Below, piece by piece: positions 10,640 to 50,294 of a stretch of 64,000 nt of DNA. The stretch lies in the NCBI RefSeq assembly GCF_003018255.1, contig NZ_CP027440.1. One strand, 5' to 3'. The number at the start of each line of letters is the position of its first letter. Position 1 is the stretch's first letter. Under the pieces are notes generated by a model. The model had not been told where the DNA came from, did not search any database, and saw only the letters and a list, made by a program, of their open reading frames with translations. Made by a program: the position numbers and the translations under genes. This DNA is from Escherichia coli. Lineage in GTDB: Bacteria > Pseudomonadota > Gammaproteobacteria > Enterobacterales > Enterobacteriaceae.

Positions 10640-11416
10640 TTAACGCTGCTCGTAGCGTTTAAACACCAGTTCGCCGTTGCTGGAGGAAGCTTCATCAAAG
10701 AAGTAACCTTCGCTATTAAAACCAGTCAGTTGCTCTGGTTTGGTCAGCCGATTTTCAATAATGAAACGACTCATCAGACCGCGTGCTTTCTTAGCGTAGA
10801 AGCTGATGATCTTAAATTTGCCGTTCTTCTCATCGAGGAACACCGGCTTGATAATCTCGGCATTCAATTTCTTCGGCTTCACCGATTTAAAATACTCATC
10901 TGACGCCAGATTAATCACCACATTATCGCCTTGTGCTGCGAGCGCCTCGTTCAGCTTGTTGGTGATGATATCTCCCCAGAATTGATACAGATCTTTCCCT
11001 CGGGCATTCTCAAGACGGATCCCCATTTCCAGACGATAAGGCTGCATTAAATCGAGCGGGCGCAGTACGCCATACAAGCCGGAAAGCATTCGCAAATGCT
11101 GTTGGGCAAAATCGAAATCGTCTTCGCTGAAGGTTTCGGCCTGCAAGCCGGTGTAGACATCACCTTTGAATGCCAGAATCGCCTGGCGGGCATTCTCCGG
11201 CGTGAAATCTGGCTGCCAGTCATGAAAGCGAGCGGCGTTGATACCCGCCAGTTTGTCGCTGATGCGCATCAGCGTGCTAATCTGCGGAGGCGTCAGTTTC
11301 CGCGCTTCATGGATCAACTGCTGGGAATTGTCTAACAGCTCCGGCAGCGTATAGCGCGTGGTGGGCAACGGGCTTTGGTAATCGAGCGTTTTCGCAGGTG
11401 AAATAAGAATCAGCAT
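10640..11416 (-). CDS. yaaA: Peroxide stress resistance protein YaaA (DUF328)
   Basis: 258-aa [20 protein letters not shown]... Confidence 0.93.
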
Positions 11417-14884: not shown

Positions 14885-15451
14885 TTAATGGGATTCACCA
14901 ATCGGCAGAACGGTGCGACCAAACTGCTCGTTCAGTACTTCACCCATCGCCAGATAGATTGCGCTGGCACCGCAGATCAGACCAATCCAGCCGGCAAAGT
15001 GGATGATTGCGGCGTTACCGGCAATGTTACCGATCGCCAGCAGGGCAAACAGCACGGTCAGGCTAAAGAAAACGAATTGCAGAACGCGTGCGCCTTTCAG
15101 CGTGCCGAAGAACATAAACAGCGTAAATACGCCCCACAGACCCAGGTAGACACCAAGGAACTGTGCATTTGGCGCATCGGTCAGACCCAGTTTCGGCATC
15201 AGCAGAATCGCAACCAGCGTCAGCCAGAAAGAACCGTAAGAGGTGAATGCGGTTAAACCGAAAGTGTTGCCTTTTTTGTACTCCAGCAGACCAGCAAAAA
15301 TTTGCGCGATGCCGCCGTAGAAAATGCCCATGGCAAGAATAATACCGTCCAGAGCAAAATAACCCACGTTGTGCAGGTTAAGCAGAATGGTGGTCATGCC
15401 GAAGCCCATCAGGCCCAGCGGTGCCGGATTAGCCAACTTAGTGTTGCCCAT
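14885..15451 (-). CDS. satP: Succinate-acetate/proton symporter SatP (YaaH)
   Basis: 188-aa membrane ORF MGNTKLANPAPLGLMGFGMTTILLNLHN... (GPR1/FUN34/YaaH family). Confidence 0.95.
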   Translation of the reverse strand: MGNTKLANPAPLGLMGFGMTTILLNLHNVGYFALDGIILAMGIFYGGIAQIFAGLLEYKKGNTFGLTAFTSYGSFWLTLVAILLMPKLGLTDAPNAQFLGVYLGLWGVFTLFMFFGTLKGARVLQFVFFSLTVLFALLAIGNIAGNAAIIHFAGWIGLICGASAIYLAMGEVLNEQFGRTVLPIGESH

Positions 15452-15599
15452 AATTCCTCAAAAATCATCATCGAATGAATGGTGAAATAATTTCCCTGAA
15501 TAACTGTAGTGTTTTCAGGGCGCGGCATAATAATCAGCCAGTGGGGCAGTGTCTACGATCTTTTGAGGGGAAAATGAAAATTTTCCCCGGTTTCCGGTA

Positions 15600-16313
15600 T
15601 CAGACCTGAGTGGCACTAACCATCCGGCGCAGGCAGGCGATTTGCAGTACGGCTGGAATTGTCACGCGATAGGCACTGCCGCTGACCGCTTTAACCCCAT
15701 TTAGTGCCGCGCCTACAGGGCCTCCCAGCCCCGCGCCGCGAAGCAAACCATGCCCAAGTACGCTCATTGCTGCGTGGGTGCGTAAAATGCGGGTCAATTG
15801 GCTGGAAAGCAAATGCGACACGCCTTTTGCCAATAATTTGTCTTTCATCAGCAGCGGCAGCAGCTCTTCCAGCTCATTCACCCTGGCATCGACCGCGTGC
15901 AGAAACTCCTGCTTATGTTCCTCGTCCATTTTCTTCCAGGTATTACGCAGAAATTGTTCCAGTAACTGTTGCTCAATTTCAAACGTAGACATCTCTTTGT
16001 CGGCTTTCAGCTTCAATCGTTTTGAAACATCGAGCAAAATGGCCCGATACAATTTACCGTGTCCGCGCAGTTTGTTGGCGATACTATCGCCACCAAAATG
16101 TTGTAATTCTCCGGCAATCAGCTGCCAGTTGCGGCGGTGTTGCTCGGGATGTCCTTCCATCGATTTAAACAGTTCGTTGCGCATCAGTACGCTGGAGAGG
16201 CGAGTTTTGCCTTTTTCATTATGGGTGAGCAGCCGGGCGAAATTTGCCAGTTGTTCCTCACTACAATGCTGGAGAAAATCCAGATCTGAATCATTCAGGT
16301 AATTAACATTCAT
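15600..16313 (-). CDS. yaaW: UPF0174 family protein YaaW
   Basis: 237-aa ORF MNVNYLNDSDLDFLQHCSEEQLANFARLL... Confidence 0.9.
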   Translation of the reverse strand: MNVNYLNDSDLDFLQHCSEEQLANFARLLTHNEKGKTRLSSVLMRNELFKSMEGHPEQHRRNWQLIAGELQHFGGDSIANKLRGHGKLYRAILLDVSKRLKLKADKEMSTFEIEQQLLEQFLRNTWKKMDEEHKQEFLHAVDARVNELEELLPLLMKDKLLAKGVSHLLSSQLTRILRTHAAMSVLGHGLLRGAGLGGPVGAALNGVKAVSGSAYRVTIPAVLQIACLRRMVSATQV

Positions 16314-16338
16314 TTTTTGTGGCTTCTATATTCTGGCG

Positions 16339-16743
16339 TTAGTCGTCGCCGATAATTTTCAGCGTGGCCATATCCGATGAGTTCACCGTATGACCAGAAA
16401 AGGTGATTTTTGAGACGCAGCGTTTATTGTCGTTATCGCTGTTAATGTTGATCCAGTCAGTGGTTTGCCCTTCTTTTATTTCTGAAGGAATATTCAGGGT
16501 CTGACTGGCGCTACGGGCGGCTTTGAAATAAACCGATGCACCGCTTAACTGTAAATCGCCATGGTCGGCTGAGAGTTGTATGCGTTTAACAATTCGGCAA
16601 ACAGGAAGTTTCAGCGCCAGATCGTTGGTTTCGTTACGTGGCATTGCAATGACGCCGAGGATTTTATGGTCGTTTGCCTGCGCCGTGCAGCACAGCAGCA
16701 GGCTAATCGCCAGGCTGGCGGAAAGCGTAAAAACGGATTTCAT
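16339..16743 (-). CDS. yaaI: Periplasmic DUF2541 protein YaaI
   Basis: 134-aa [26 protein letters not shown]... with signal peptide; conserved start inside the longer 148-aa track ORF. Confidence 0.85.
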
Positions 16744-16960
16744 AAGGATTCTCTTAGTGGGGAGAGGTAGGGGATGAATACCCACTAGTTTACTGCTGAT
16801 AAAGAGAAGATTCAGGTACGTAATATTTTCTTTTTATTACAATTTTTCTATGAATGTCTTGTCTGCTATTCATTCTCTATATGAATAAAATTGCTGTCAG
16901 TTTCATGTCTTGTTCTGGCATATCGCGAAATTTCTGCGCAAAAGCACAAAAAATTTTTGC

Positions 16961-17000
16961 ATCTCCCCCTTGATGACGTGGGTTACGACCCCATTTAGTA
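16961..17000 (+). promoter_or_regulatory. dnaK P1 heat-shock (sigma32) promoter
   Basis: TCTCCCCCTTGATGA (-35) and GACCCCATTTAGTA (-10), matching the sigma32 consensus CTTGAA...CCCCATNT. Confidence 0.85.
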
Positions 17001-17042
17001 GTCAACCGCAGTGAGTGAGTCTGCAAAAAAATGAAATTGGGC

Positions 17043-17073
17043 AGTTGAAACCAGACGTTTCGCCCCTATTACA
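17043..17073 (+). promoter_or_regulatory. dnaK P2 heat-shock (sigma32) promoter
   Basis: TTGAAA at 17045-17050 with CCCCTATTA about 13 bp downstream. Confidence 0.7.
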
Positions 17074-17118
17074 GACTCACAACCACATGATGACCGAATA
17101 TATAGTGGAGACGTTTAG

Positions 17119-19035
17119 ATGGGTAAAATAATTGGTATCGACCTGGGTACTACCAACTCTTGTGTAGCGATTATGGATGGCACCACTCCTCGTGTACTGG
17201 AGAACGCCGAAGGCGATCGCACCACGCCTTCTATCATTGCCTATACCCAGGATGGTGAAACTCTGGTTGGTCAGCCGGCTAAACGTCAGGCAGTGACGAA
17301 CCCGCAAAACACCCTGTTTGCGATTAAACGCCTGATTGGCCGCCGCTTCCAGGACGAAGAAGTACAGCGTGATGTTTCCATCATGCCGTTCAAAATTATT
17401 GCTGCTGATAACGGCGACGCATGGGTCGAAGTTAAAGGCCAGAAAATGGCACCGCCGCAGATCTCTGCTGAAGTGCTGAAAAAAATGAAGAAAACCGCTG
17501 AAGATTACCTGGGTGAACCGGTAACTGAAGCTGTTATCACCGTACCGGCATACTTTAACGATGCTCAGCGTCAGGCAACCAAAGACGCAGGCCGTATCGC
17601 TGGTCTGGAAGTAAAACGTATCATCAACGAACCGACCGCAGCTGCGCTGGCTTACGGTCTGGACAAAGGTACTGGCAACCGTACTATCGCGGTTTATGAC
17701 CTGGGTGGTGGTACTTTCGATATTTCTATTATCGAAATCGACGAAGTTGACGGCGAAAAAACCTTCGAAGTTCTGGCAACCAACGGTGATACCCACCTGG
17801 GTGGTGAAGACTTCGACAGCCGTCTGATCAACTACCTGGTTGAAGAATTCAAGAAAGATCAGGGCATTGACCTGCGCAACGATCCGCTGGCAATGCAGCG
17901 CCTGAAAGAAGCGGCAGAAAAAGCGAAAATCGAACTGTCTTCCGCTCAGCAGACCGACGTTAACCTGCCGTACATCACTGCAGACGCGACCGGTCCGAAA
18001 CACATGAACATCAAAGTGACTCGTGCGAAACTGGAAAGCCTGGTTGAAGATCTGGTAAACCGTTCCATTGAGCCGCTGAAAGTTGCACTGCAGGACGCTG
18101 GCCTGTCCGTATCTGATATCGACGACGTTATCCTCGTTGGTGGTCAGACTCGTATGCCAATGGTTCAGAAGAAAGTTGCTGAGTTCTTTGGTAAAGAGCC
18201 GCGTAAAGACGTTAACCCGGACGAAGCTGTAGCAATCGGTGCTGCTGTTCAGGGTGGTGTTCTGACTGGTGACGTAAAAGACGTACTGCTGCTGGACGTT
18301 ACCCCGCTGTCTCTGGGTATCGAAACCATGGGCGGTGTGATGACGACGCTGATCGCGAAAAACACCACTATCCCGACCAAGCACAGCCAGGTGTTCTCTA
18401 CCGCTGAAGACAACCAGTCTGCGGTAACCATCCATGTGCTGCAGGGTGAACGTAAACGTGCAGCTGATAACAAATCTCTGGGTCAGTTCAACCTGGATGG
18501 TATCAACCCGGCACCGCGCGGCATGCCGCAGATCGAAGTTACCTTCGATATCGATGCTGACGGTATCCTGCACGTTTCCGCGAAAGATAAAAACAGCGGT
18601 AAAGAGCAGAAGATCACCATCAAGGCTTCTTCTGGTCTGAACGAAGATGAAATCCAGAAAATGGTACGCGACGCAGAAGCTAACGCCGAAGCTGACCGTA
18701 AGTTTGAAGAGCTGGTACAGACTCGCAACCAGGGCGACCATCTGCTGCACAGCACCCGTAAGCAGGTTGAAGAAGTGGGCGACAAACTGCCGGCTGACGA
18801 CAAAACTGCTATCGAGTCTGCACTGACTGCACTGGAAACTGCTCTGAAAGGTGAAGACAAAGCCGCTATCGAAGCGAAAATGCAGGAACTGGCACAGGTT
18901 TCCCAGAAACTGATGGAAATCGCCCAGCAGCAACATGCCCAGCAGCAGACTGCCGGTGCTGATGCTTCTGCAAACAACGCGAAAGATGACGATGTTGTCG
19001 ACGCTGAATTTGAAGAAGTCAAAGACAAAAAATAA
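17119..19035 (+). CDS. dnaK: Molecular chaperone DnaK (Hsp70)
   Basis: 638-aa [24 protein letters not shown]... Confidence 0.99.
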
Positions 19036-19123
19036 TCGCCCTATAAACGGGTAATTATACTGACACGGGCGAAGGGGAATTTCCTCTCCGCCCGTGCATT
19101 CATCTAGGGGCAATTTAAAAAAG
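19036..19123 (+). ncRNA. tpke11: dnaK-dnaJ intergenic stem-loop region (position of the reported tpke11 transcript)
   Basis: Hairpin ACGGGCGAAGGGG-aatttc-CTCTCCGCCCGT in the 88-bp spacer; the sRNA assignment is from recalled literature and is uncertain. Confidence 0.3.
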
Positions 19124-44456: not shown

Positions 44457-44705
44457 TTAATTCCACTGTGAAAACGAATATTTATTTTGCGTTCCCGTTT
44501 GTTTTATTTTTGTTAACATTTAATATAATTATTATTAACCTCGTGGACGCGTTAATGGCTAACTCATAATGGGTATTCAATAAGCTGCATTCTGTGATTG
44601 TTATCACATTTTTGTTTCGGGTGAATAGAGGGCATTTTTTTCGTTAATTTTGATTATTAATCAGTTTGTTATGCTCTGTTGTGAGTAAAAAAATAGCATC
44701 TGACT

Positions 44706-44836
44706 TTCAATATTGGTGATCCATAAAACAATATTGAAAATTTCTTTTTTCTACGCCATGTTTTCAATATTGGTGAGGAGCTTAACAATATTGAAAGTTG
44801 GATTTATCTGCGTGTGACATTTTCAATATTGGTGAT
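44706..44836. promoter_or_regulatory. cai/fix divergent control region: two complete CaiF-type sites plus a third half-site
   Basis: TTTCAATATTG-N13-CAATATTGAAA occurs twice (44706-44739 and 44763-44796); a third TTTCAATATTGGTGA copy lies at 44821-44835. Matches the reported CaiF site architecture (11-bp inverted half-sites, 13-bp spacer). Confidence 0.75.
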
Positions 44837-44926
44837 TAAAGTTTTATTTCCAAATTAAAGGGCGTGATATCTGTAATTAACACCACCGATATGAACGACG
44901 TTTCCTTCATGATTTCTGGAGATGCA

Positions 44927-45697
44927 ATGAAGATTATTACTTGCTATAAGTGCGTGCCTGATGAACAGGATATTGCGGTCAATAATGCTGATGGTTCATT
45001 AGACTTCAGCAAAGCCGATGCCAAAATAAGCCAATACGATCTCAACGCTATTGAAGCGGCTTGCCAGCTAAAGCAACAGGCAGCAGAGGCGCAGGTGACG
45101 GCCTTAAGTGTGGGCGGTAAAGCCCTGACCAACGCCAAAGGGCGTAAAGATGTGCTATCGCGCGGTCCGGATGAACTGATTGTGGTGATTGATGACCAGT
45201 TCGAGCAGGCACTGCCGCAACAAACGGCGAGCGTACTTGCTGCAGCCGCTCAGAAAGCAGGCTTTGATTTGATCCTCTGTGGCGATGGTTCTTCCGACCT
45301 TTATGCCCAGCAGGTTGGTTTGCTGGTAGGCGAAATCCTTAATATTCCGGCAGTTAACGGCGTCAGCAAAATTATCTCCCTGACTGCAGATACCCTCACC
45401 GTTGAGCGCGAACTGGAAGATGAAACAGAAACCTTAAGCATTCCGCTGCCTGCGGTTGTTGCTGTTTCCACTGATATCAACTCCCCACAAATTCCTTCGA
45501 TGAAAGCCATTCTCGGCGCGGCGAAAAAGCCAGTCCAGGTATGGTCGGCGGCGGATATCGGTTTTAACGCAGAGGCAGCCTGGTCAGAACAACAGGTTGC
45601 TGCGCCGAAACAGCGCGAGCGTCAGCGCATCGTGATTGAAGGCGACGGCGAAGAACAGATCGCCGCATTTGCTGAAAATCTTCGCAAAGTCATTTAA
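44927..45697 (+). CDS. fixA: Electron transfer flavoprotein beta-subunit homolog FixA
   Basis: 256-aa product [27 protein letters not shown]...; the upstream in-frame extension (44864) is not conserved. Confidence 0.95.
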
Positions 45698-45711
45698 TTA
45701 CAGGGGATGCT

Positions 45712-46653
45712 ATGAACACGTTTTCTCAAGTCTGGGTATTCAGCGATACCCCTTCTCGTCTGCCGGAACTGATGAACGGTGCGCAGGCTTTAGCTAATCA
45801 AATCAACACGTTCGTCCTCAATGATGCCGACGGCGCACAGGCAATCCAGCTCGGCGCTAATCATGTCTGGAAATTAAGCGGCAAACCGGACGAGCGGATG
45901 ATCGAAGATTACGCCGGTGTCATGGCTGACACTATTCGCCAGCACGGCGCAGACGGTCTGGTGCTGTTGCCAAACACCCGTCGCGGCAAATTACTGGCGG
46001 CGAAACTGGGTTACCGCCTTAACGCGGCGGTGTCTAACGATGCCAGCGCTGTTAGCGTGCAGGACGGTAAAGCGACAGTGAAACACATGGTTTACGGCGG
46101 TCTGGCGATTGGCGAAGAACGCATTGCCACGCCGTATGCGGTTCTGACCATCAGCAGCGGCACGTTCGATGTGGCTCAGCCAGACGCGTCACGCACTGGC
46201 GAAACGCACACCGTGGAGTGGCAGGCTCCGGCTGTGGCGATTACCCGCACGGCAACCCAGGCGCGTCAGAGCAACAGCGTCGATCTCGACAAAGCCCGCC
46301 TGGTGGTCAGCGTTGGTCGCGGTATTGGCAGCAAAGAGAACATTGCGCTGGCAGAACAGCTTTGCAAGGCGATAGGTGCGGAGTTGGCCTGTTCTCGTCC
46401 GGTGGCGGAAAACGAAAAATGGATGGAGCACGAACGCTATGTCGGTATCTCCAACCTGATGCTGAAACCTGAACTGTACCTGGCGGTGGGGATCTCCGGG
46501 CAGATCCAGCACATGGTTGGCGCTAATGCGTCGCAAACCATTTTCGCCATCAACAAAGATAAAAATGCGCCGATCTTCCAGTACGCGGATTACGGCATTG
46601 TTGGCGACGCCGTGAAGATCCTTCCGGCACTGACCGCAGCTTTAGCGCGTTGA
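45712..46653 (+). CDS. fixB: Electron transfer flavoprotein alpha-subunit homolog FixB
   Basis: 313-aa [33 protein letters not shown]... Confidence 0.97.
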
Positions 46654-46703
46654 TCCACTCTGGCAGGGCTGCATTTTGGCCCTGCCGCTGACAGGGAGCT
46701 CTT

Positions 46704-47990
46704 ATGTCCGAAGATATCTTTGACGCCATCATCGTCGGTGCAGGGCTTGCCGGTTCGGTTGCCGCACTGGTGCTCGCCCGCGAAGGGGCGCAAGTGTTAG
46801 TTATCGAGCGAGGCAATTCCGCTGGTGCCAAGAACGTCACCGGCGGGCGTCTCTATGCCCACAGTCTGGAACACATTATTCCTGGTTTCGCTGACTCCGC
46901 CCCCGTAGAACGCCTGATCACCCATGAAAAACTCGCGTTTATGACGGAAAAGTCTGCGATGACTATGGACTACTGCAACGGTGACGAAACCTCACCATCC
47001 CAGCGTTCTTACTCCGTTTTGCGCAGTAAATTTGATGCCTGGCTGATGGAGCAGGCCGAAGAAGCGGGTGCGCAGTTAATTACCGGGATTCGTGTCGATA
47101 ACCTCGTACAGCGCGATGGCAAAGTTGTCGGCGTAGAAGCCGATGGCGATGTAATTGAAGCGAAAACGGTGATCCTTGCTGACGGGGTGAACTCCATCCT
47201 TGCCGAAAAGCTGGGGATGGCAAAACGCGTTAAACCGACGGATGTGGCGGTTGGCGTGAAGGAACTGATCGAATTACCGAAGTCGGTTATCGAAGACCGT
47301 TTTCAGTTGCAGGGTAATCAGGGTGCGGCTTGCCTGTTTGCGGGTTCCCCCACTGATGGCCTGATGGGCGGCGGCTTTCTTTATACCAATGAAAACACCC
47401 TGTCGCTGGGGCTGGTTTGTGGTTTGCATCATCTGCATGACGCAAAAAAATCGGTGCCGCAAATGCTGGAAGATTTCAAACAACATCCGGCCGTTGCACC
47501 GCTGATCGCGGGCGGCAAGCTGGTGGAATATTCCGCTCACGTAGTGCCGGAAGCAGGTATCAACATGCTGCCGGAGTTGGTTGGTGACGGCGTATTGATT
47601 GCCGGTGATGCTGCCGGAATGTGTATGAACCTCGGTTTTACCATTCGCGGTATGGATCTGGCGATTGCCGCCGGGGAAGCAGCAGCAAAAACTGTGCTTT
47701 CAGCGATGAAAAGCGACGATTTCAGTAAGCAAAAACTCGCGGAATATCGTCAGCATCTTGAGAGTGGCCCGCTGCGCGATATGCGCATGTACCAGAAACT
47801 ACCGGCGTTCCTTGATAACCCACGCATGTTTAGCGGCTACCCGGAACTGGCGGTGGGCGTGGCGCGTGACCTGTTCACCATTGACGGCAGTGCGCCGGAA
47901 CTGATGCGCAAGAAAATCCTCCGCCACGGCAAGAAAGTGGGCTTCATCAATCTGATCAAGGATGGCATGAAAGGAGTGACCGTTTTATGA
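46704..47990 (+). CDS. fixC: FAD-dependent oxidoreductase FixC (ETF-QO-like)
   Basis: 428-aa ORF MSEDIFDAIIVGAGLAGSVAALVLAREGAQVLVIERG... (Rossmann GxGxxG). Confidence 0.97.
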   Translation: MSEDIFDAIIVGAGLAGSVAALVLAREGAQVLVIERGNSAGAKNVTGGRLYAHSLEHIIPGFADSAPVERLITHEKLAFMTEKSAMTMDYCNGDETSPSQRSYSVLRSKFDAWLMEQAEEAGAQLITGIRVDNLVQRDGKVVGVEADGDVIEAKTVILADGVNSILAEKLGMAKRVKPTDVAVGVKELIELPKSVIEDRFQLQGNQGAACLFAGSPTDGLMGGGFLYTNENTLSLGLVCGLHHLHDAKKSVPQMLEDFKQHPAVAPLIAGGKLVEYSAHVVPEAGINMLPELVGDGVLIAGDAAGMCMNLGFTIRGMDLAIAAGEAAAKTVLSAMKSDDFSKQKLAEYRQHLESGPLRDMRMYQKLPAFLDNPRMFSGYPELAVGVARDLFTIDGSAPELMRKKILRHGKKVGFINLIKDGMKGVTVL

Positions 47991-48274
47991 CTTCTCCCGT
48001 CAATGTGGACGTCAAACTGGGCGTCAATAAATTCAATGTCGATGAAGAGCATCCGCACATCGTTGTGAAGGCCGATGCCGATAAACAGGCCCTGGAGCTG
48101 CTGGTGAAAGCGTGCCCCGCAGGTCTGTACAAGAAGCAGGATGACGGCAGTGTGCGCTTCGATTACGCCGGATGTCTGGAGTGCGGCACCTGTCGCATTC
48201 TGGGGCTGGGGTCGGCGCTGGAACAGTGGGAATACCCGCGCGGCACCTTTGGTGTGGAGTTCCGTTACGGCTGA
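47987..48274 (+). CDS. fixX: Ferredoxin-like protein FixX
   Basis: 95-aa ORF MTSPVNVDVKLGVNKFNVDEEHPHIVVKADADKQALELLVKACPAGLYKKQDDGSVRFDYAGCLECGTCRILG...; overlaps the fixC stop by 4 nt. Confidence 0.95.
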   Translation: MTSPVNVDVKLGVNKFNVDEEHPHIVVKADADKQALELLVKACPAGLYKKQDDGSVRFDYAGCLECGTCRILGLGSALEQWEYPRGTFGVEFRYG

Positions 48275-48332
48275 TGTTGGTTTGATACGTAATGCCGTAC
48301 TGACTCTCATTGCAAAAAAACAGGAATAACCC

Positions 48333-49664
48333 ATGCAACCGTCCAGAAACTTTGATGATCTTAAATTCTCCTCTATTCACCGCCGCATTTTGCTGTGGGG
48401 AAGCGGTGGTCCGTTTCTGGATGGTTATGTACTGGTAATGATTGGCGTGGCGCTGGAGCAACTGACTCCGGCGCTGAAACTGGACGCTGACTGGATTGGC
48501 TTGCTGGGCGCGGGAACGCTCGCCGGGCTGTTCGTTGGCACATCGCTGTTTGGCTATATCTCCGATAAAGTCGGACGGCGCAAAATGTTCCTCATTGATA
48601 TCATCGCCATCGGCGTGATATCGGTGGCGACGATGTTTGTCTCATCCCCCGTCGAACTGTTAGTGATGCGGGTACTCATCGGCATTGTCATCGGTGCAGA
48701 TTATCCCATCGCCACTTCGATGATCACTGAGTTCTCCAGTACCCGTCAGCGGGCGTTTTCCATCAGCTTTATTGCCGCGATGTGGTATGTCGGCGCGACC
48801 TGCGCCGATCTGGTCGGTTACTGGCTTTATGATGTGGAAGGTGGTTGGCGCTGGATGCTGGGTAGCGCAGCGATCCCCTGTTTGTTGATTTTGATTGGTC
48901 GATTCGAACTGCCTGAATCTCCCCGCTGGTTGTTACGCAAAGGGCGAGTAAAAGAGTGCGAAGAGATGATGATCAAACTGTTTGGCGAACCGGTGGCTTT
49001 CGATGAAGAGCAGCCGCAGCAAACCCGTTTTCGCGATCTGTTTAATCGCCGCCATTTTCCTTTTGTTCTGTTTGTTGCCGCCATCTGGACCTGCCAGGTG
49101 ATCCCGATGTTCGCCATCTACACCTTTGGCCCGCAAATCGTTGGTTTGTTGGGATTGGGTGTTGGCAAAAACGCGGCACTGGGGAACGTGGTGATTAGCC
49201 TGTTCTTTATGCTCGGCTGTATTCCACCGATGCTGTGGCTAAACACTGCCGGACGGCGTCCATTGTTGATTGGCAGCTTTGCCATGATGACGCTGGCGCT
49301 GGCGGTTTTGGGGCTGATCCCGGATATGGGGATCTGGCTGGTAGTGATGGCATTTGCGGTGTATGCCTTTTTCTCTGGCGGGCCGGGTAATTTGCAGTGG
49401 CTCTATCCTAATGAACTCTTCCCGACGGATATCCGCGCCTCTGCCGTGGGCGTGATTATGTCCTTAAGCCGTATTGGCACTATTGTTTCGACCTGGGCAC
49501 TGCCGATCTTTATCAATAATTACGGTATCAGTAACACGATGCTAATGGGGGCGGGTATCTCGCTGTTTGGCTTGTTGATTTCCGTAGCGTTTGCCCCGGA
49601 GACTCGAGGGATGTCACTGGCGCAGACCAGCAATATGACGATCCGCGGGCAGAGAATGGGGTAA
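48333..49664 (+). CDS. yaaU: MFS-family transporter YaaU
   Basis: 443-aa ORF with 12 predicted TM segments and sugar-transporter-like motifs. Confidence 0.93.
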   Translation: MQPSRNFDDLKFSSIHRRILLWGSGGPFLDGYVLVMIGVALEQLTPALKLDADWIGLLGAGTLAGLFVGTSLFGYISDKVGRRKMFLIDIIAIGVISVATMFVSSPVELLVMRVLIGIVIGADYPIATSMITEFSSTRQRAFSISFIAAMWYVGATCADLVGYWLYDVEGGWRWMLGSAAIPCLLILIGRFELPESPRWLLRKGRVKECEEMMIKLFGEPVAFDEEQPQQTRFRDLFNRRHFPFVLFVAAIWTCQVIPMFAIYTFGPQIVGLLGLGVGKNAALGNVVISLFFMLGCIPPMLWLNTAGRRPLLIGSFAMMTLALAVLGLIPDMGIWLVVMAFAVYAFFSGGPGNLQWLYPNELFPTDIRASAVGVIMSLSRIGTIVSTWALPIFINNYGISNTMLMGAGISLFGLLISVAFAPETRGMSLAQTSNMTIRGQRMG

Positions 49665-49771
49665 TTTGTTCAGATTTCTCTCTTTTCTGAATCAATATTA
49701 TTGACTATAAGCCGCGTGAATATATGACTACACTTTGTGGGAAAACAAAGGCGTAATCACGCGGGCTACCT

Positions 49772-50294
49772 ATGATTCTTATAATTTATGCGCATCCGTA
49801 TCCGCATCATTCCCATGCGAATAAACGGATGCTTGAACAGGCAAGGACGCTGGAAGGCGTCGAAATTCGCTCTCTTTATCAACTCTATCCTGACTTCAAT
49901 ATCGATATTGCCGCCGAGCAGGAGGCGCTGTCTCGCGCCGATCTGATCGTCTGGCAGCACCCGATGCAGTGGTACAGCATTCCTCCGCTTCTTAAACTTT
50001 GGATCGATAAAGTCTTCTCGCACGGCTGGGCTTACGGTCACGGCGGCACGGCGCTGCATGGCAAACATTTACTGTGGGCGGTGACGACCGGCGGTGGGGA
50101 AAGCCATTTTGAGATTGGTGCGCATCCGGGCTTTGATGTGCTGTCACAGCCGCTACAGGCGACGGCAATCTACTGCGGGCTGAACTGGCTGCCACCGTTT
50201 GCCATGCACTGCACCTTTATTTGTGACGACGAAACCCTCGAAGGGCAGGCGCGGCACTATAAGCAACGTCTGCTGGAATGGCAGGAGGCACATC

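Follow-up and report, generated by a model that had tools for sequence, protein, structure and literature searches.

Among the long antisense overlapping genes of E. coli, htgA/mbiA is the oldest example and the one cited most often, and its reality bears on the number of such genes in bacteria. Working in EHEC, Fellner et al. 2014 reportedly described promoter activity and assigned biofilm and metabolome phenotypes to an htgA mutant that was strand-specific and translationally arrested; the study is said to have used the O157:H7-type long MbiA form. For the work of Missiakas et al. 1993, the account in Delaye 2008 (PMC2268670) names cloning, Northern blots, protein labelling, and promoter mapping of htgA, and its discussion refers to a later study in which htgA was not sigma-32 induced. 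An intragenic htgA/yaaW promoter was predicted by PlatProm and was active in vitro (PMC2731890), and a 2020 preprint lists mbiA/yaaW among the overlapping pairs verified by phenotype (10.1101/2020.11.18.388249). Antisense overlapping genes are contested, as an earlier note on the present DNA had remarked, in agreement with the literature (PMC2268670 discussion; PMC3454372).

In K-12 MG1655, mbiA (htgA, htpY; b0012) encodes 161 aa and is annotated in RefSeq; MbiA is also held in Swiss-Prot (Q8XA70/P28697), with the O157:H7 protein (Q8XA70) at 171 aa. Here, we analyzed the copy of this locus in a 64,000-nucleotide stretch of E. coli DNA, hereafter the window.

Results

The earlier note had placed a 174-codon plus strand ORF, resembling htgA, entirely inside yaaW on the opposite strand. 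The ORF list agrees, giving a GTG start and 174 aa plus stop at 15778..16302 (+), wholly within yaaW at 15600..16313 (-). Gene order tal-mog-satP-yaaW-yaaI-dnaK is common to the window and K-12, and the ORF sits between satP and yaaI-dnaK. With an offset of 4957 between the K-12 coordinates of b0012 (10830..11315) and b0011 (10643..11356) and those of the window, K-12 mbiA corresponds to 15787..16272, with the same locus, strand, frame, and ATG, and 98% identity across the common 161 residues. The protein matched annotated HtgA/MbiA at E = 1.6e-99 and 98-99% identity, in a cluster that includes K-12, O157:H7, UTI89, and Shigella flexneri MbiA. Coordinates, alignment, and near-identical annotated proteins thus place the htgA locus opposite yaaW, and the ORF is the already catalogued htgA/mbiA (b0012) in a common long form; nothing about the ORF itself is new.

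The coordinates of the features are collected in Table 1. Relative to yaaW, mbiA lies in the '123/213' (-2) antisense phase, in which third codon positions of both strands face each other; the phase that we calculated from the coordinates is the one given for htgA/yaaW in PMC2268670. The two htgA starts of Delaye 2008 (PMC2268670), at yaaW nt 632 and nt 527, correspond to 15682 and 15787, and the CTG at the former was remarked on by CAMBer (PMC3194237). Annotated lengths of 171 (Q8XA70), 174 (ADD54668.1), and 206 aa (EDL933 AAG54312.1) correspond to the starts ATG15787, GTG15778, and CTG15682. The ATG is conserved across Escherichia (17 alleles), including Escherichia sp. E1V33 and E. albertii, where the GTG at 15778 is replaced by GTC and GTA, respectively.

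Table 1. Coordinates of the htgA/mbiA locus and its frame-setting sites in the window
Feature	Position	Strand	Description
yaaW (mother gene)	15600..16313	-	237-aa ORF; K-12 b0011
In-frame TAG bounding the open frame upstream	15670..15672	+	Arises from YaaW Tyr215 after GCC
Legacy htgA/htpY reading, CTG start	15682..16302	+	206 aa here; old K-12 annotation 196 aa (591 nt)
CCCCATTTA, sigma-32-like -10 nonamer	15695..15703	+	Perfect consensus match; 84 nt upstream of ATG15787
GTG-start version of the mbiA frame	15778..16302	+	174 codons; ADD54668.1 (O55:H7 CB9615) also 174 aa
mbiA/htgA from the currently annotated ATG	15787..16302	+	171 codons plus TAA; long O157:H7-type allele
AAA here, TAA in non-Escherichia relatives	16096..16098	+	YaaW His72-Tyr73 stop; Escherichia has Phe73
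Premature TGA site, CFT073/Nissle-type strains	16102..16104	+	MbiA shortened to 105 aa; open in the window
Premature TGA site, ETEC4068-type strains and E. albertii	16222..16224	+	MbiA shortened to 145 aa; open in the window
Polymorphic site, TGG (here) or TGA (K-12)	16270..16272	+	ORF of 171 codons with TGG, 161 with TGA
TAA stop of the long allele	16300..16302	+	From yaaW Asn4 (AAT) then Tyr5 (TAC)

The frame had also been expected to overrun the K-12 stop by about 10 codons, and the overrun is exactly 10. In the alignment, K-12 CTGAAG stands against CTGGAG in the window, such that the K-12 TGA reads TGG here and translation from the ATG would yield 171 rather than 161 aa. The extra codons are due to one base, 16272, the third position of yaaW Leu14 (CTC here, CTT in K-12), a change that is silent in yaaW; over its 714 nt, yaaW differs from that of K-12 at 16 nucleotides. 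The stop codon and the added residues, WRKSRSESFR, are shared with the O157:H7, O55:H7, UTI89, and chi7122 forms, UTI89 being annotated over the same span as 15787..16302 and chi7122 at 206 aa. O157:H7-type MbiA is 98% identical to the product of the window and differs from it at a few residues, for example 4 (N/S), 9 (K/R), and 155 (S/N). Comparison with Shigella, which the earlier note had proposed, showed that the annotated S. flexneri 2457T protein ends like that of K-12. Exact 60-mers of the TGG form occurred in at least 2101, and those of the K-12 (TGA) form in at least 1500, of 5426 complete E. coli genomes. Hence, the extension is an ordinary non-K-12 allele, found in O157:H7, B2, and many other lineages and already in UniProt/GenBank.

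The mother gene is well founded. YaaW (UPF0174) carries Ubiq_cyt_C_chap (PF03981; 7.7e-16, 58.9 bits, cut-off 21.5) and DUF3944 (PF13099; 1.2e-14, 54.3 bits, cut-off 24) domains, and K-12 b0011 is annotated as 'putative enzyme-specific chaperone YaaW'. Our scan of genome contigs returned 17 orthologous loci at 71-99% identity, in the same neighbourhood in other Enterobacteriaceae, with no E. fergusonii or Shigella locus among the loci returned. YaaW was intact in 17/17 Escherichia alleles, with a naive omega of 0.04-0.08. The converse proposal, that yaaW rather than htgA is the spurious frame, was rejected given these Pfam domains, the wide orthology, and an omega of ~0.05.

In the -2 antisense phase, a stop requires either a YaaW Tyr whose preceding codon has T or C as its last base, or a His or Gln whose preceding codon has T there. 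The His and Gln residues of YaaW are mostly preceded by Glu, Gln, Lys, or Trp, none of which has a codon with T in last place, and this leaves room for few antisense stops. When the YaaW protein sequence was synonymously recoded (20,000 trials), ORFs of at least 174 codons arose with P = 0.09-0.15, and open runs at least as long as the observed 209 codons (15673..16299) with P = 0.06-0.08; recoded sequences held a mean of 3.9-4.2 stops vs. 3 observed. The probability of an open run of at least 174 codons was 0.06-0.21 for Escherichia sequences and ~0 for non-Escherichia genera. Given the YaaW protein, the length of the mbiA ORF is therefore only marginally above chance. Embedded antisense ORFs of at least 174 codons numbered 8 in 36 genes of the window, two of them in the phase of mbiA. 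Stop density in the window was 0.018 per codon in the -1 (123/321) phase vs. 0.035 in the -2 phase, and the 209-codon run was the longest -2 open run among 36 genes with verified coordinates.

The predicted product mirrors YaaW. Of its 171 residues, 42 are Ser and 16 are Cys. This Ser/Cys-rich character, which the earlier note had recognized, reflects the Leu/Glu/Gln/His content of YaaW, with Glu/Asp and CTN-Leu giving rise to Ser, and His and Gln to Cys and Trp. For a cytoplasmic protein of E. coli, a Cys content of 9% is unusually high. A Pfam and NCBIfam search with the MbiA product gave no family match, and the codon-usage score of the frame was average for an antisense frame (rank 18/36). 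Anti-SD pairing upstream of ATG15787 (-3.9 kcal/mol) fell between the gene median (-6.1) and the random-position median (-2.4) and was absent upstream of GTG15778 (+0.6 kcal/mol). AlphaFold2 run on the single sequence gave a pLDDT of 28.5 and no secondary structure, a result that fits an unfolded product and is uninformative for an orphan that has no alignment. A 201-aa metagenome protein (P0002; 52% identical) was considered as an independent distant homologue and rejected as an assembly artefact, because the contig that encodes it is E. coli DNA in which satP and dnaK are fragmented and 723 nt hold 13 indels.

Selection was assessed on 17 alleles, with segregating sites counted on the consensus and no tree. 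Changes that are synonymous in yaaW were distributed in the mbiA frame as 22 synonymous, 7 nonsynonymous, and 2 nonsense in E. coli, and as 77, 29, and 2 in Escherichia, against a neutral expectation of 0.727, 0.254, and 0.019; nonsense changes were not depleted (2 seen vs. 0.6 expected). Conditional omega of the mbiA frame, based on yaaW-synonymous changes only, was 0.7-1.4. An omega of 0.5 was rejected for the Escherichia set (P = 0.02 to 1e-5) and an omega of 0.2 in both sets. The naive omega of mbiA (0.16-0.25) was reproduced by yaaW constraint alone, which also predicted 80 mbiA-synonymous changes where 81 were observed. PMC4182739 cautions that a mother gene can make its -2 frame look conserved as an artefact. 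The dN/dS comparison of both frames that the earlier note had suggested thus set a strongly constrained yaaW beside an mbiA frame with conditional omega ~1, and together with the recoding test it largely accounts for conservation of the frame through yaaW codon constraints, the sequence-based half of the outcome named there as speaking against a gene. These tests lend no support to MbiA as a selected protein; weak selection (omega ~0.7) would still be compatible with them.

Among 14 E. coli alleles, the mbiA frame was 171, 161, 145, or 105 codons long, and YaaW was intact in all. The 105-aa allele was seen in CFT073, in which the nonsense mutation was noted by Delaye 2008 (PMC2268670), and in FDAARGOS_1293; its exact 60-mer occurred in 154 genomes, including Nissle 1917. 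The TGA giving 145 codons is synonymous in yaaW, and its 60-mer occurred in 245 genomes. Shortening to 145 or 105 codons proceeded by yaaW-silent or near-silent changes in other healthy lineages, and the frame is not kept intact across its carriers, with stops at 16270, 16222, and 16102 in at least 1500, 245, and 154 genomes, respectively. The TGA at 16270..16272 also occurs in Salmonella, Citrobacter Res13, P. vulneris, and others; this site therefore flips repeatedly. Outside Escherichia, a TAA at 16096..16098 closes the frame in Citrobacter, Salmonella, UBA7338, ESNIH1, and P. vulneris. This stop is unavoidable with His72-Tyr73 and is gone in Escherichia because Phe73 replaces Tyr73 (Y73F).

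Codons 1-105 were open in all 17 Escherichia alleles read. Furthermore, the yaaW-silent transition 15801 G>A (W5*) was absent from 5426 genomes when both local haplotypes were searched, and a control 31-mer matched 2533. These observations would suit a real young gene that arose by overprinting and encodes a 171-aa Ser/Cys-rich biofilm modulator of which only the ~105 N-terminal residues matter, such that C-terminal length drifts. So would the conserved ATG, the standing of the open frame as a -2 outlier in the window, the annotation of b0012 in MG1655 RefSeq and Swiss-Prot, the E. coli-specific sigma-32 -10 described below, and the published phenotype claims for htgA, in so far as these are conveyed by Delaye 2008 (PMC2268670) and by the citations of Fellner 2014 in PMC4683798 and 10.1101/2020.11.18.388249. 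However, only four yaaW-silent nonsense changes are available to codons 1-105, namely 15801 G>A, 15816 C>A, 15900 C>A, and 16062 T>A, and all but the first are transversions; an intact N-terminal part therefore carries little evidential weight. Likewise, ~0.8 of these four early stops would be expected under neutrality (extrapolated from the 17-allele sample), so the W5* null carries little. A conditional omega of ~1 with nonsense not depleted, an ORF length expected in 9-15% of recodings, conservation that may be a mother-gene artefact, the high Cys content, the weak SD, the lack of a homologue, domain, or confident fold, and the later report of no sigma-32 induction all argue against a real young gene, which we consider unlikely.

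The sigma-32 -10 consensus is CCCCATNTA. Its perfect match upstream of the ORF, CCCCATTTA, occurred only twice in the 64 kb, the identical second copy lying at 16989-16997 (+), ~120 nt upstream of dnaK. Shuffled sequences held a mean of 1.32 matches window-wide and 36/100 reached 2, and the two matches are thus no excess. The nonamer was invariant in 14 E. coli alleles and read CGCCGTTTA or CACCGTTTA in two cryptic-clade representatives and E. albertii. Within it, the change CCCCAT to CGCCGT is yaaW-silent, CGCCGT being the natural cryptic-clade Escherichia state. No convincing -35 element partnering the 15695..15703 nonamer was seen by inspection. A sigma-70 promoter scan gave no plus strand site upstream of the ORF, its sole plus strand site lying downstream at 16303-16332, and an Rfam search of 15300-17200 on both strands (E <= 1) returned no family. 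The E. coli-specific nonamer would nonetheless be one point in favour of real transcription.

Should a plus strand transcript begin within yaaW, downstream of this nonamer, the functional product, if any, might be the RNA itself, acting antisense to the yaaI-yaaW message or reading towards the dnaK promoter region. In that case, the reported htgA/htpY heat-shock and biofilm phenotypes would stem from this RNA or from yaaW effects, with the ORF incidental. An RNA function is consistent with a nonamer that is the same as that upstream of dnaK, fixed in E. coli and absent from sister clades, with the in vitro activity of the PlatProm-predicted promoter (PMC2731890), and with the orientation shared by the plus strand ORF and dnaK-dnaJ, ~820 nt downstream. 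Set against this are the missing -35 element and the empty sigma-70 scan at the site, the Rfam result, a nonamer count matched by shuffles, and the later study that found no sigma-32 induction (PMC2268670 discussion). This proposal appears very unlikely to us.

Discussion

The ORF is the known htgA/mbiA locus in its long allele and is, in our judgement, probably for the most part a 'shadow ORF' that coding for YaaW generates as a by-product; if translated at all, it would give an unconstrained proto-gene product rather than a protein that purifying selection maintains. In Escherichia, Y73F removed the unavoidable His72-Tyr73 stop, and any mbiA-strand transcript may start downstream of the E. 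coli-specific sigma-32-like -10 at 15695-15703. The same changes could be read as a gene in the act of birth, whereby the frame was opened by the single replacement Y73F in an ancestor of Escherichia, a dnaK-like sigma-32 -10 that conferred heat-responsive expression was then made by two yaaW-silent changes in E. coli proper, and the ~105 N-terminal codons began to matter as the C-terminus drifted between 105, 145, 161, and 171 codons. Such a history seems to us distinctly improbable.

The useful outcome is a negative one, in that YaaW constraint alone suffices to reproduce the length, composition, and apparent conservation of the ORF, which natural lineages freely truncate. Earlier sequence arguments for htgA, namely a slower yaaW rate and a dN/dS below 1, are thereby weakened, and the case for htgA therefore rests on expression and phenotype experiments. 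The analysis also provides clean genetic reagents in the form of four yaaW-silent changes that create stops and one yaaW-silent change that destroys the -10.

Within the window, one parallel to mbiA is a 678-codon shadow ORF opposite dnaK, likewise a long stop-free antisense frame that follows from the amino acids and codons used in the sense gene. Long shadow ORFs opposite highly expressed genes bear no evidence of selection of their own, as is the case for mbiA; however, most of them lie in the -1 (123/321) phase, whereas mbiA lies in the -2 phase, where long runs are rarer. The EHEC antisense genes nog1/citC, pop/ompA, asa, laoB, and ano rest on RNA-seq and Ribo-seq; in contrast, mbiA was judged here from sequence alone, and constraint was not found. 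In arrangement mbiA resembles them, each being a taxonomically restricted frame that is embedded antisense in a conserved mother gene and for which an origin by overprinting has been proposed (PMC4683798, PMC7103648, PMC6294744, PMC5810103, PMC5960689).

Identification of the Open Frame Opposite yaaW

The gene order tal-mog-satP-yaaW-yaaI-dnaK-dnaJ in the window is that of K-12, and the yaaW region is 100% identical to that of JNE23-011 (L020) and 96.9 to 99.6% identical to that of almost every other complete E. coli genome. The window and JNE23-011 have common coordinates as far as caiT; from fixA on, JNE23-011 coordinates give no intact genes in the window and 4051 position-wise mismatches (about 44,500-50,000), which implies either an indel or another allele around 44.5-44.9 kb.

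A mechanical ORF list confirmed the 174-codon plus-strand ORF that the earlier note had placed within yaaW at the position of htgA, and K-12 mbiA (htgA) maps onto 15787..16272 (offset 4957). Third codon positions of the two strands are opposed, the '123/213' or -2 phase already described for htgA/yaaW (PMC2268670; PMC4182739). Over a 714-nt alignment, yaaW of the window and of K-12 differ at 16 positions. A>G at 16272 (K-12 to window) turns TGA into TGG and adds 10 codons (WRKSRSESFR) up to the TAA at 16300-16302, so the extension of about 10 codons proposed earlier is exactly 10; in yaaW, this substitution is silent (Leu14, CTT>CTC). The observation correctly recovers an already known and disputed locus in its common long allele.

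Coordinates of features in the window and in MG1655
Feature	Coordinates	Strand	Remark
yaaW	15600..16313	-	237 aa
Antisense ORF, GTG start	15778..16302	+	174 aa; wholly within yaaW
Stop-free run of mbiA frame	15673..16299	+	209 codons; limits TAG 15670, TAA 16300
CCCCATTTA, copy 1	16989-16997	+	~120 nt upstream of dnaK
CCCCATTTA, copy 2	15695-15703	+	inside yaaW, 84 nt upstream of mbiA ATG
dnaK	17119-19035	+	
ORF antisense to dnaK	17077-19113	-	678 aa; exceeds dnaK in length
yaaW b0011, MG1655 RefSeq	10643..11356	-	annotation
mbiA b0012 'uncharacterized protein MbiA', MG1655 RefSeq	10830..11315	+	annotation

RefSeq/PGAP calls yaaW 'msyB: acidic protein MsyB' in the majority of the ~70 listed records (e.g., NZ_AP045067.1, NC_004431.1). 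The equivalog model NCBIfam NF007593, which bears the MsyB name, covers YaaW over its full length (520 bits). The genuine MsyB (b1051, 124 aa) fits a different model, NF008544, and BLASTP shows no relationship to YaaW (E = 2.6). The label looks like a propagated naming error.

Length, Composition, and Origin of the Frame

A stop on the antisense strand in the -2 phase requires a sense Tyr after a T- or C-ending codon, or a His or Gln after a T-ending codon. There are 3 Tyr and 23 His/Gln in YaaW; in the site table, the residue before His/Gln is mostly Glu, Gln, Lys, or Trp, none of which has a codon ending in T. Under two null models, with synonymous codons permuted within yaaW or redrawn from window codon usage (20,000 recodings each), the mbiA frame carried a mean of 3.9 to 4.2 stops vs. 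3 observed; an open run reached 209 codons or more with a probability of 0.06 to 0.08, and an ORF counted from a start codon reached 174 codons or more with a probability of 0.09 to 0.15. The mbiA ORF is real, yet statistically unremarkable given its mother protein. Among 36 coordinate-verified neighbouring genes, the yaaW run was the longest in the -2 phase, followed by dnaK (183 codons), with an average stop density in this phase of 0.035 per codon. Counting all phases, the same genes hold 8 antisense ORFs of 174 codons or more that lie wholly inside them, those of carB and ileS included.

The antisense frames of dnaK, carB, ileS, dnaJ, caiB, and ispH provided internal controls for shadow-ORF frequency, with long embedded ORFs in carB (637 codons), ileS (403), dnaJ (238), and caiB (218). 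The -1 antisense frame is stop-free in dnaK and entirely open in ispH.

The predicted product has 42 Ser and 16 Cys among its 171 residues, in line with the richness in both that was noted earlier. This composition results from the -2 phase opposite YaaW, a protein high in Leu, Glu, Gln, and His: sense GAN (Glu/Asp) becomes TCN (Ser), CTN (Leu) becomes AGN (Ser/Arg), and CAN (His/Gln) becomes TGN (Cys/Trp/stop).

Orthologues of yaaW from 14 other genomes were compared. In E. coli, two cryptic-clade representatives, and E. albertii the mbiA frame has 3 to 5 stops and is open for 183 to 209 codons; in Citrobacter, Salmonella, Kluyvera, Pseudescherichia, and others it has 5 to 9 stops and longest runs of 59 to 102 codons. 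Most non-Escherichia genomes with a 714-nt yaaW have in common a TAA at 16096 that arises from YaaW His72-Tyr73 and is unavoidable whatever the codons; Escherichia has Phe73. After recoding, an open run of 174 codons or more had a probability of ~0 for non-Escherichia vs. 0.06 to 0.21 for Escherichia proteins, and therefore a single YaaW residue change made a long antisense frame likely. These sequence comparisons place the origin of the frame in the genus Escherichia, widening the 'E. coli/Shigella' origin proposed by Delaye (PMC2268670).

Tests for Selection on the mbiA Frame

YaaW was intact in all 17 alleles read, 14 from E. coli and 3 from other Escherichia. The E. coli set has 37 segregating changes over 15787..16299 and the Escherichia set 125. 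The yaaW-silent changes were synonymous, nonsynonymous, and nonsense in the mbiA frame in 22, 7, and 2 cases in E. coli and in 77, 29, and 2 cases in Escherichia, against a neutral expectation (kappa = 2) of 72.7%, 25.4%, and 1.9%. Counted among yaaW-synonymous changes, mbiA conditional omega was 0.7 to 1.4; in this tree-free test on a small sample (17 alleles), with sites counted on the consensus sequence, omega = 0.2 was rejected for both sets and omega = 0.5 for the Escherichia set (P = 0.02 to 1e-5). Naive omega of the mbiA frame (0.16 to 0.25) resembles purifying selection, the pattern reported by Delaye for htgA (PMC2268670). Constraint on yaaW alone (omega = 0.04 to 0.08) yields this value, with ~80 mbiA-synonymous changes expected vs. 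81 observed. The dN/dS check of both frames suggested in the earlier note thus reproduced mbiA conservation from yaaW alone, and conservation of a -2 frame has been described as possibly a pure mother-gene artefact (PMC4182739).

Only 7 yaaW-silent one-step stops are possible in mbiA, 4 in codons 1-105 and 3 in the C-terminal part. Two of the latter three are common polymorphisms. None of the former four occurs in the 17 alleles, and 15801 G>A, the sole transition among them, was found in 0 of 5426 genomes, a null result that is weak evidence. Anti-SD pairing is -3.9 kcal/mol at the ATG and absent at the GTG. Codon usage in the mbiA frame has a score typical of antisense frames (rank 18 of 36); its product has no Pfam or NCBIfam match and an AlphaFold2 model with a pLDDT of 28.5. 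On the sequence evidence, the mbiA ORF probably exists because of the YaaW sequence and drifts freely; a young functional protein seems unlikely.

Candidate Sigma-32 Element and Transcription

The sigma-32 -10 consensus is CCCCATNTA. It has only two matches in the 64-kb window, both reading CCCCATTTA, a number within shuffle range window-wide. The copy upstream of dnaK sits where the dnaK P1 promoter lies. Every E. coli allele read (14 of 14) has the copy inside yaaW unchanged. Its counterpart is CGCCGTTTA or CACCGTTTA in E. albertii and the cryptic-clade representatives, where two yaaW-silent positions differ; no -35 element was seen by inspection for the copy inside yaaW. As a motif match, this sigma-32-like nonamer would be a point in favour of mbiA transcription. 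htgA/htpY was reportedly described in 1993 as a heat-shock regulator, and the name mbiA is said to have followed an EHEC phenotype study by Fellner in 2014. An intragenic htgA/yaaW promoter was active in vitro (PMC2731890), and htgA was not sigma-32 induced in a later study, according to Delaye's discussion (PMC2268670). A functional antisense transcript at this locus is, in our reading, improbable. The locus is contested, as the earlier note had stated of overlapping antisense genes in general: htgA was treated as a case of overprinting with its existence explicitly flagged as controversial (PMC2268670), and some annotations have dropped it 'due to conflicting data' (PMC3454372).

Length Alleles and Annotated MbiA Proteins

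Four length alleles were counted by exact 60-mers in 5426 genomes, all counts being lower bounds because extra SNPs within the 60-mer divide haplotypes. The window type (TGG, 171 codons from the ATG) is found in O157:H7 and ST131 (at least 2101 genomes); TGA at 16270 gives 161 codons in K-12, MIN9, and BE2-5 (at least 1500), TGA at 16222 gives 145 codons in ETEC4068 and also E. albertii (at least 245), and TGA at 16102 gives 105 codons in CFT073 and Nissle 1917 (at least 154). The 10-codon extension is an ordinary non-K-12 allele. The 16270 TGA is also present in Salmonella, Citrobacter, and P. vulneris but absent from E. albertii and the E1V33 clade, which indicates repeated flipping of a silent site. 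In NZ_CP180600.1 (strain PS2Canimalfeces12), yaaW is interrupted by an IS1X2 insertion and annotated as two fragments, so at least one isolate tolerates its loss, together with that of any mbiA.

In the protein collection, a single 90% cluster of 14 sequences contains MbiA, and no homologues were found there outside E. coli/Shigella, artefacts aside. Two partial 'Pseudomonas aeruginosa' hypothetical proteins in this cluster (P0009 and P0011, on 241-nt and 327-nt contigs) probably stem from E. coli contamination of those assemblies. A further source of an apparent homologue, ENA ERZ11448917 contig_355 (L033), was rejected as an error-rich E. coli metagenome assembly, with 13 indels over 723 nt and dnaK broken into four genes. 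Its gene caller picked the antisense mbiA-like frame instead of yaaW, illustrating a route by which spurious antisense-ORF 'homologues' enter protein databases.

Annotated MbiA has 161 aa in K-12 and BL21/REL606, 171 aa in O157:H7 (Swiss-Prot Q8XA70, 'MbiA, modifier of biofilm') and UTI89, 174 aa in O55:H7 CB9615, 199 aa in Shigella flexneri 2457T, and 206 aa in EDL933 and chi7122, from the old CTG start (window 15682). The stop position, which the earlier note had proposed comparing with K-12 and Shigella, lies 10 residues earlier in both. In the protein alignment, the window C-terminus is like the O157:H7, O55:H7, UTI89, and chi7122 forms, whereas those of K-12, BL21, and S. flexneri are 10 residues short of it.
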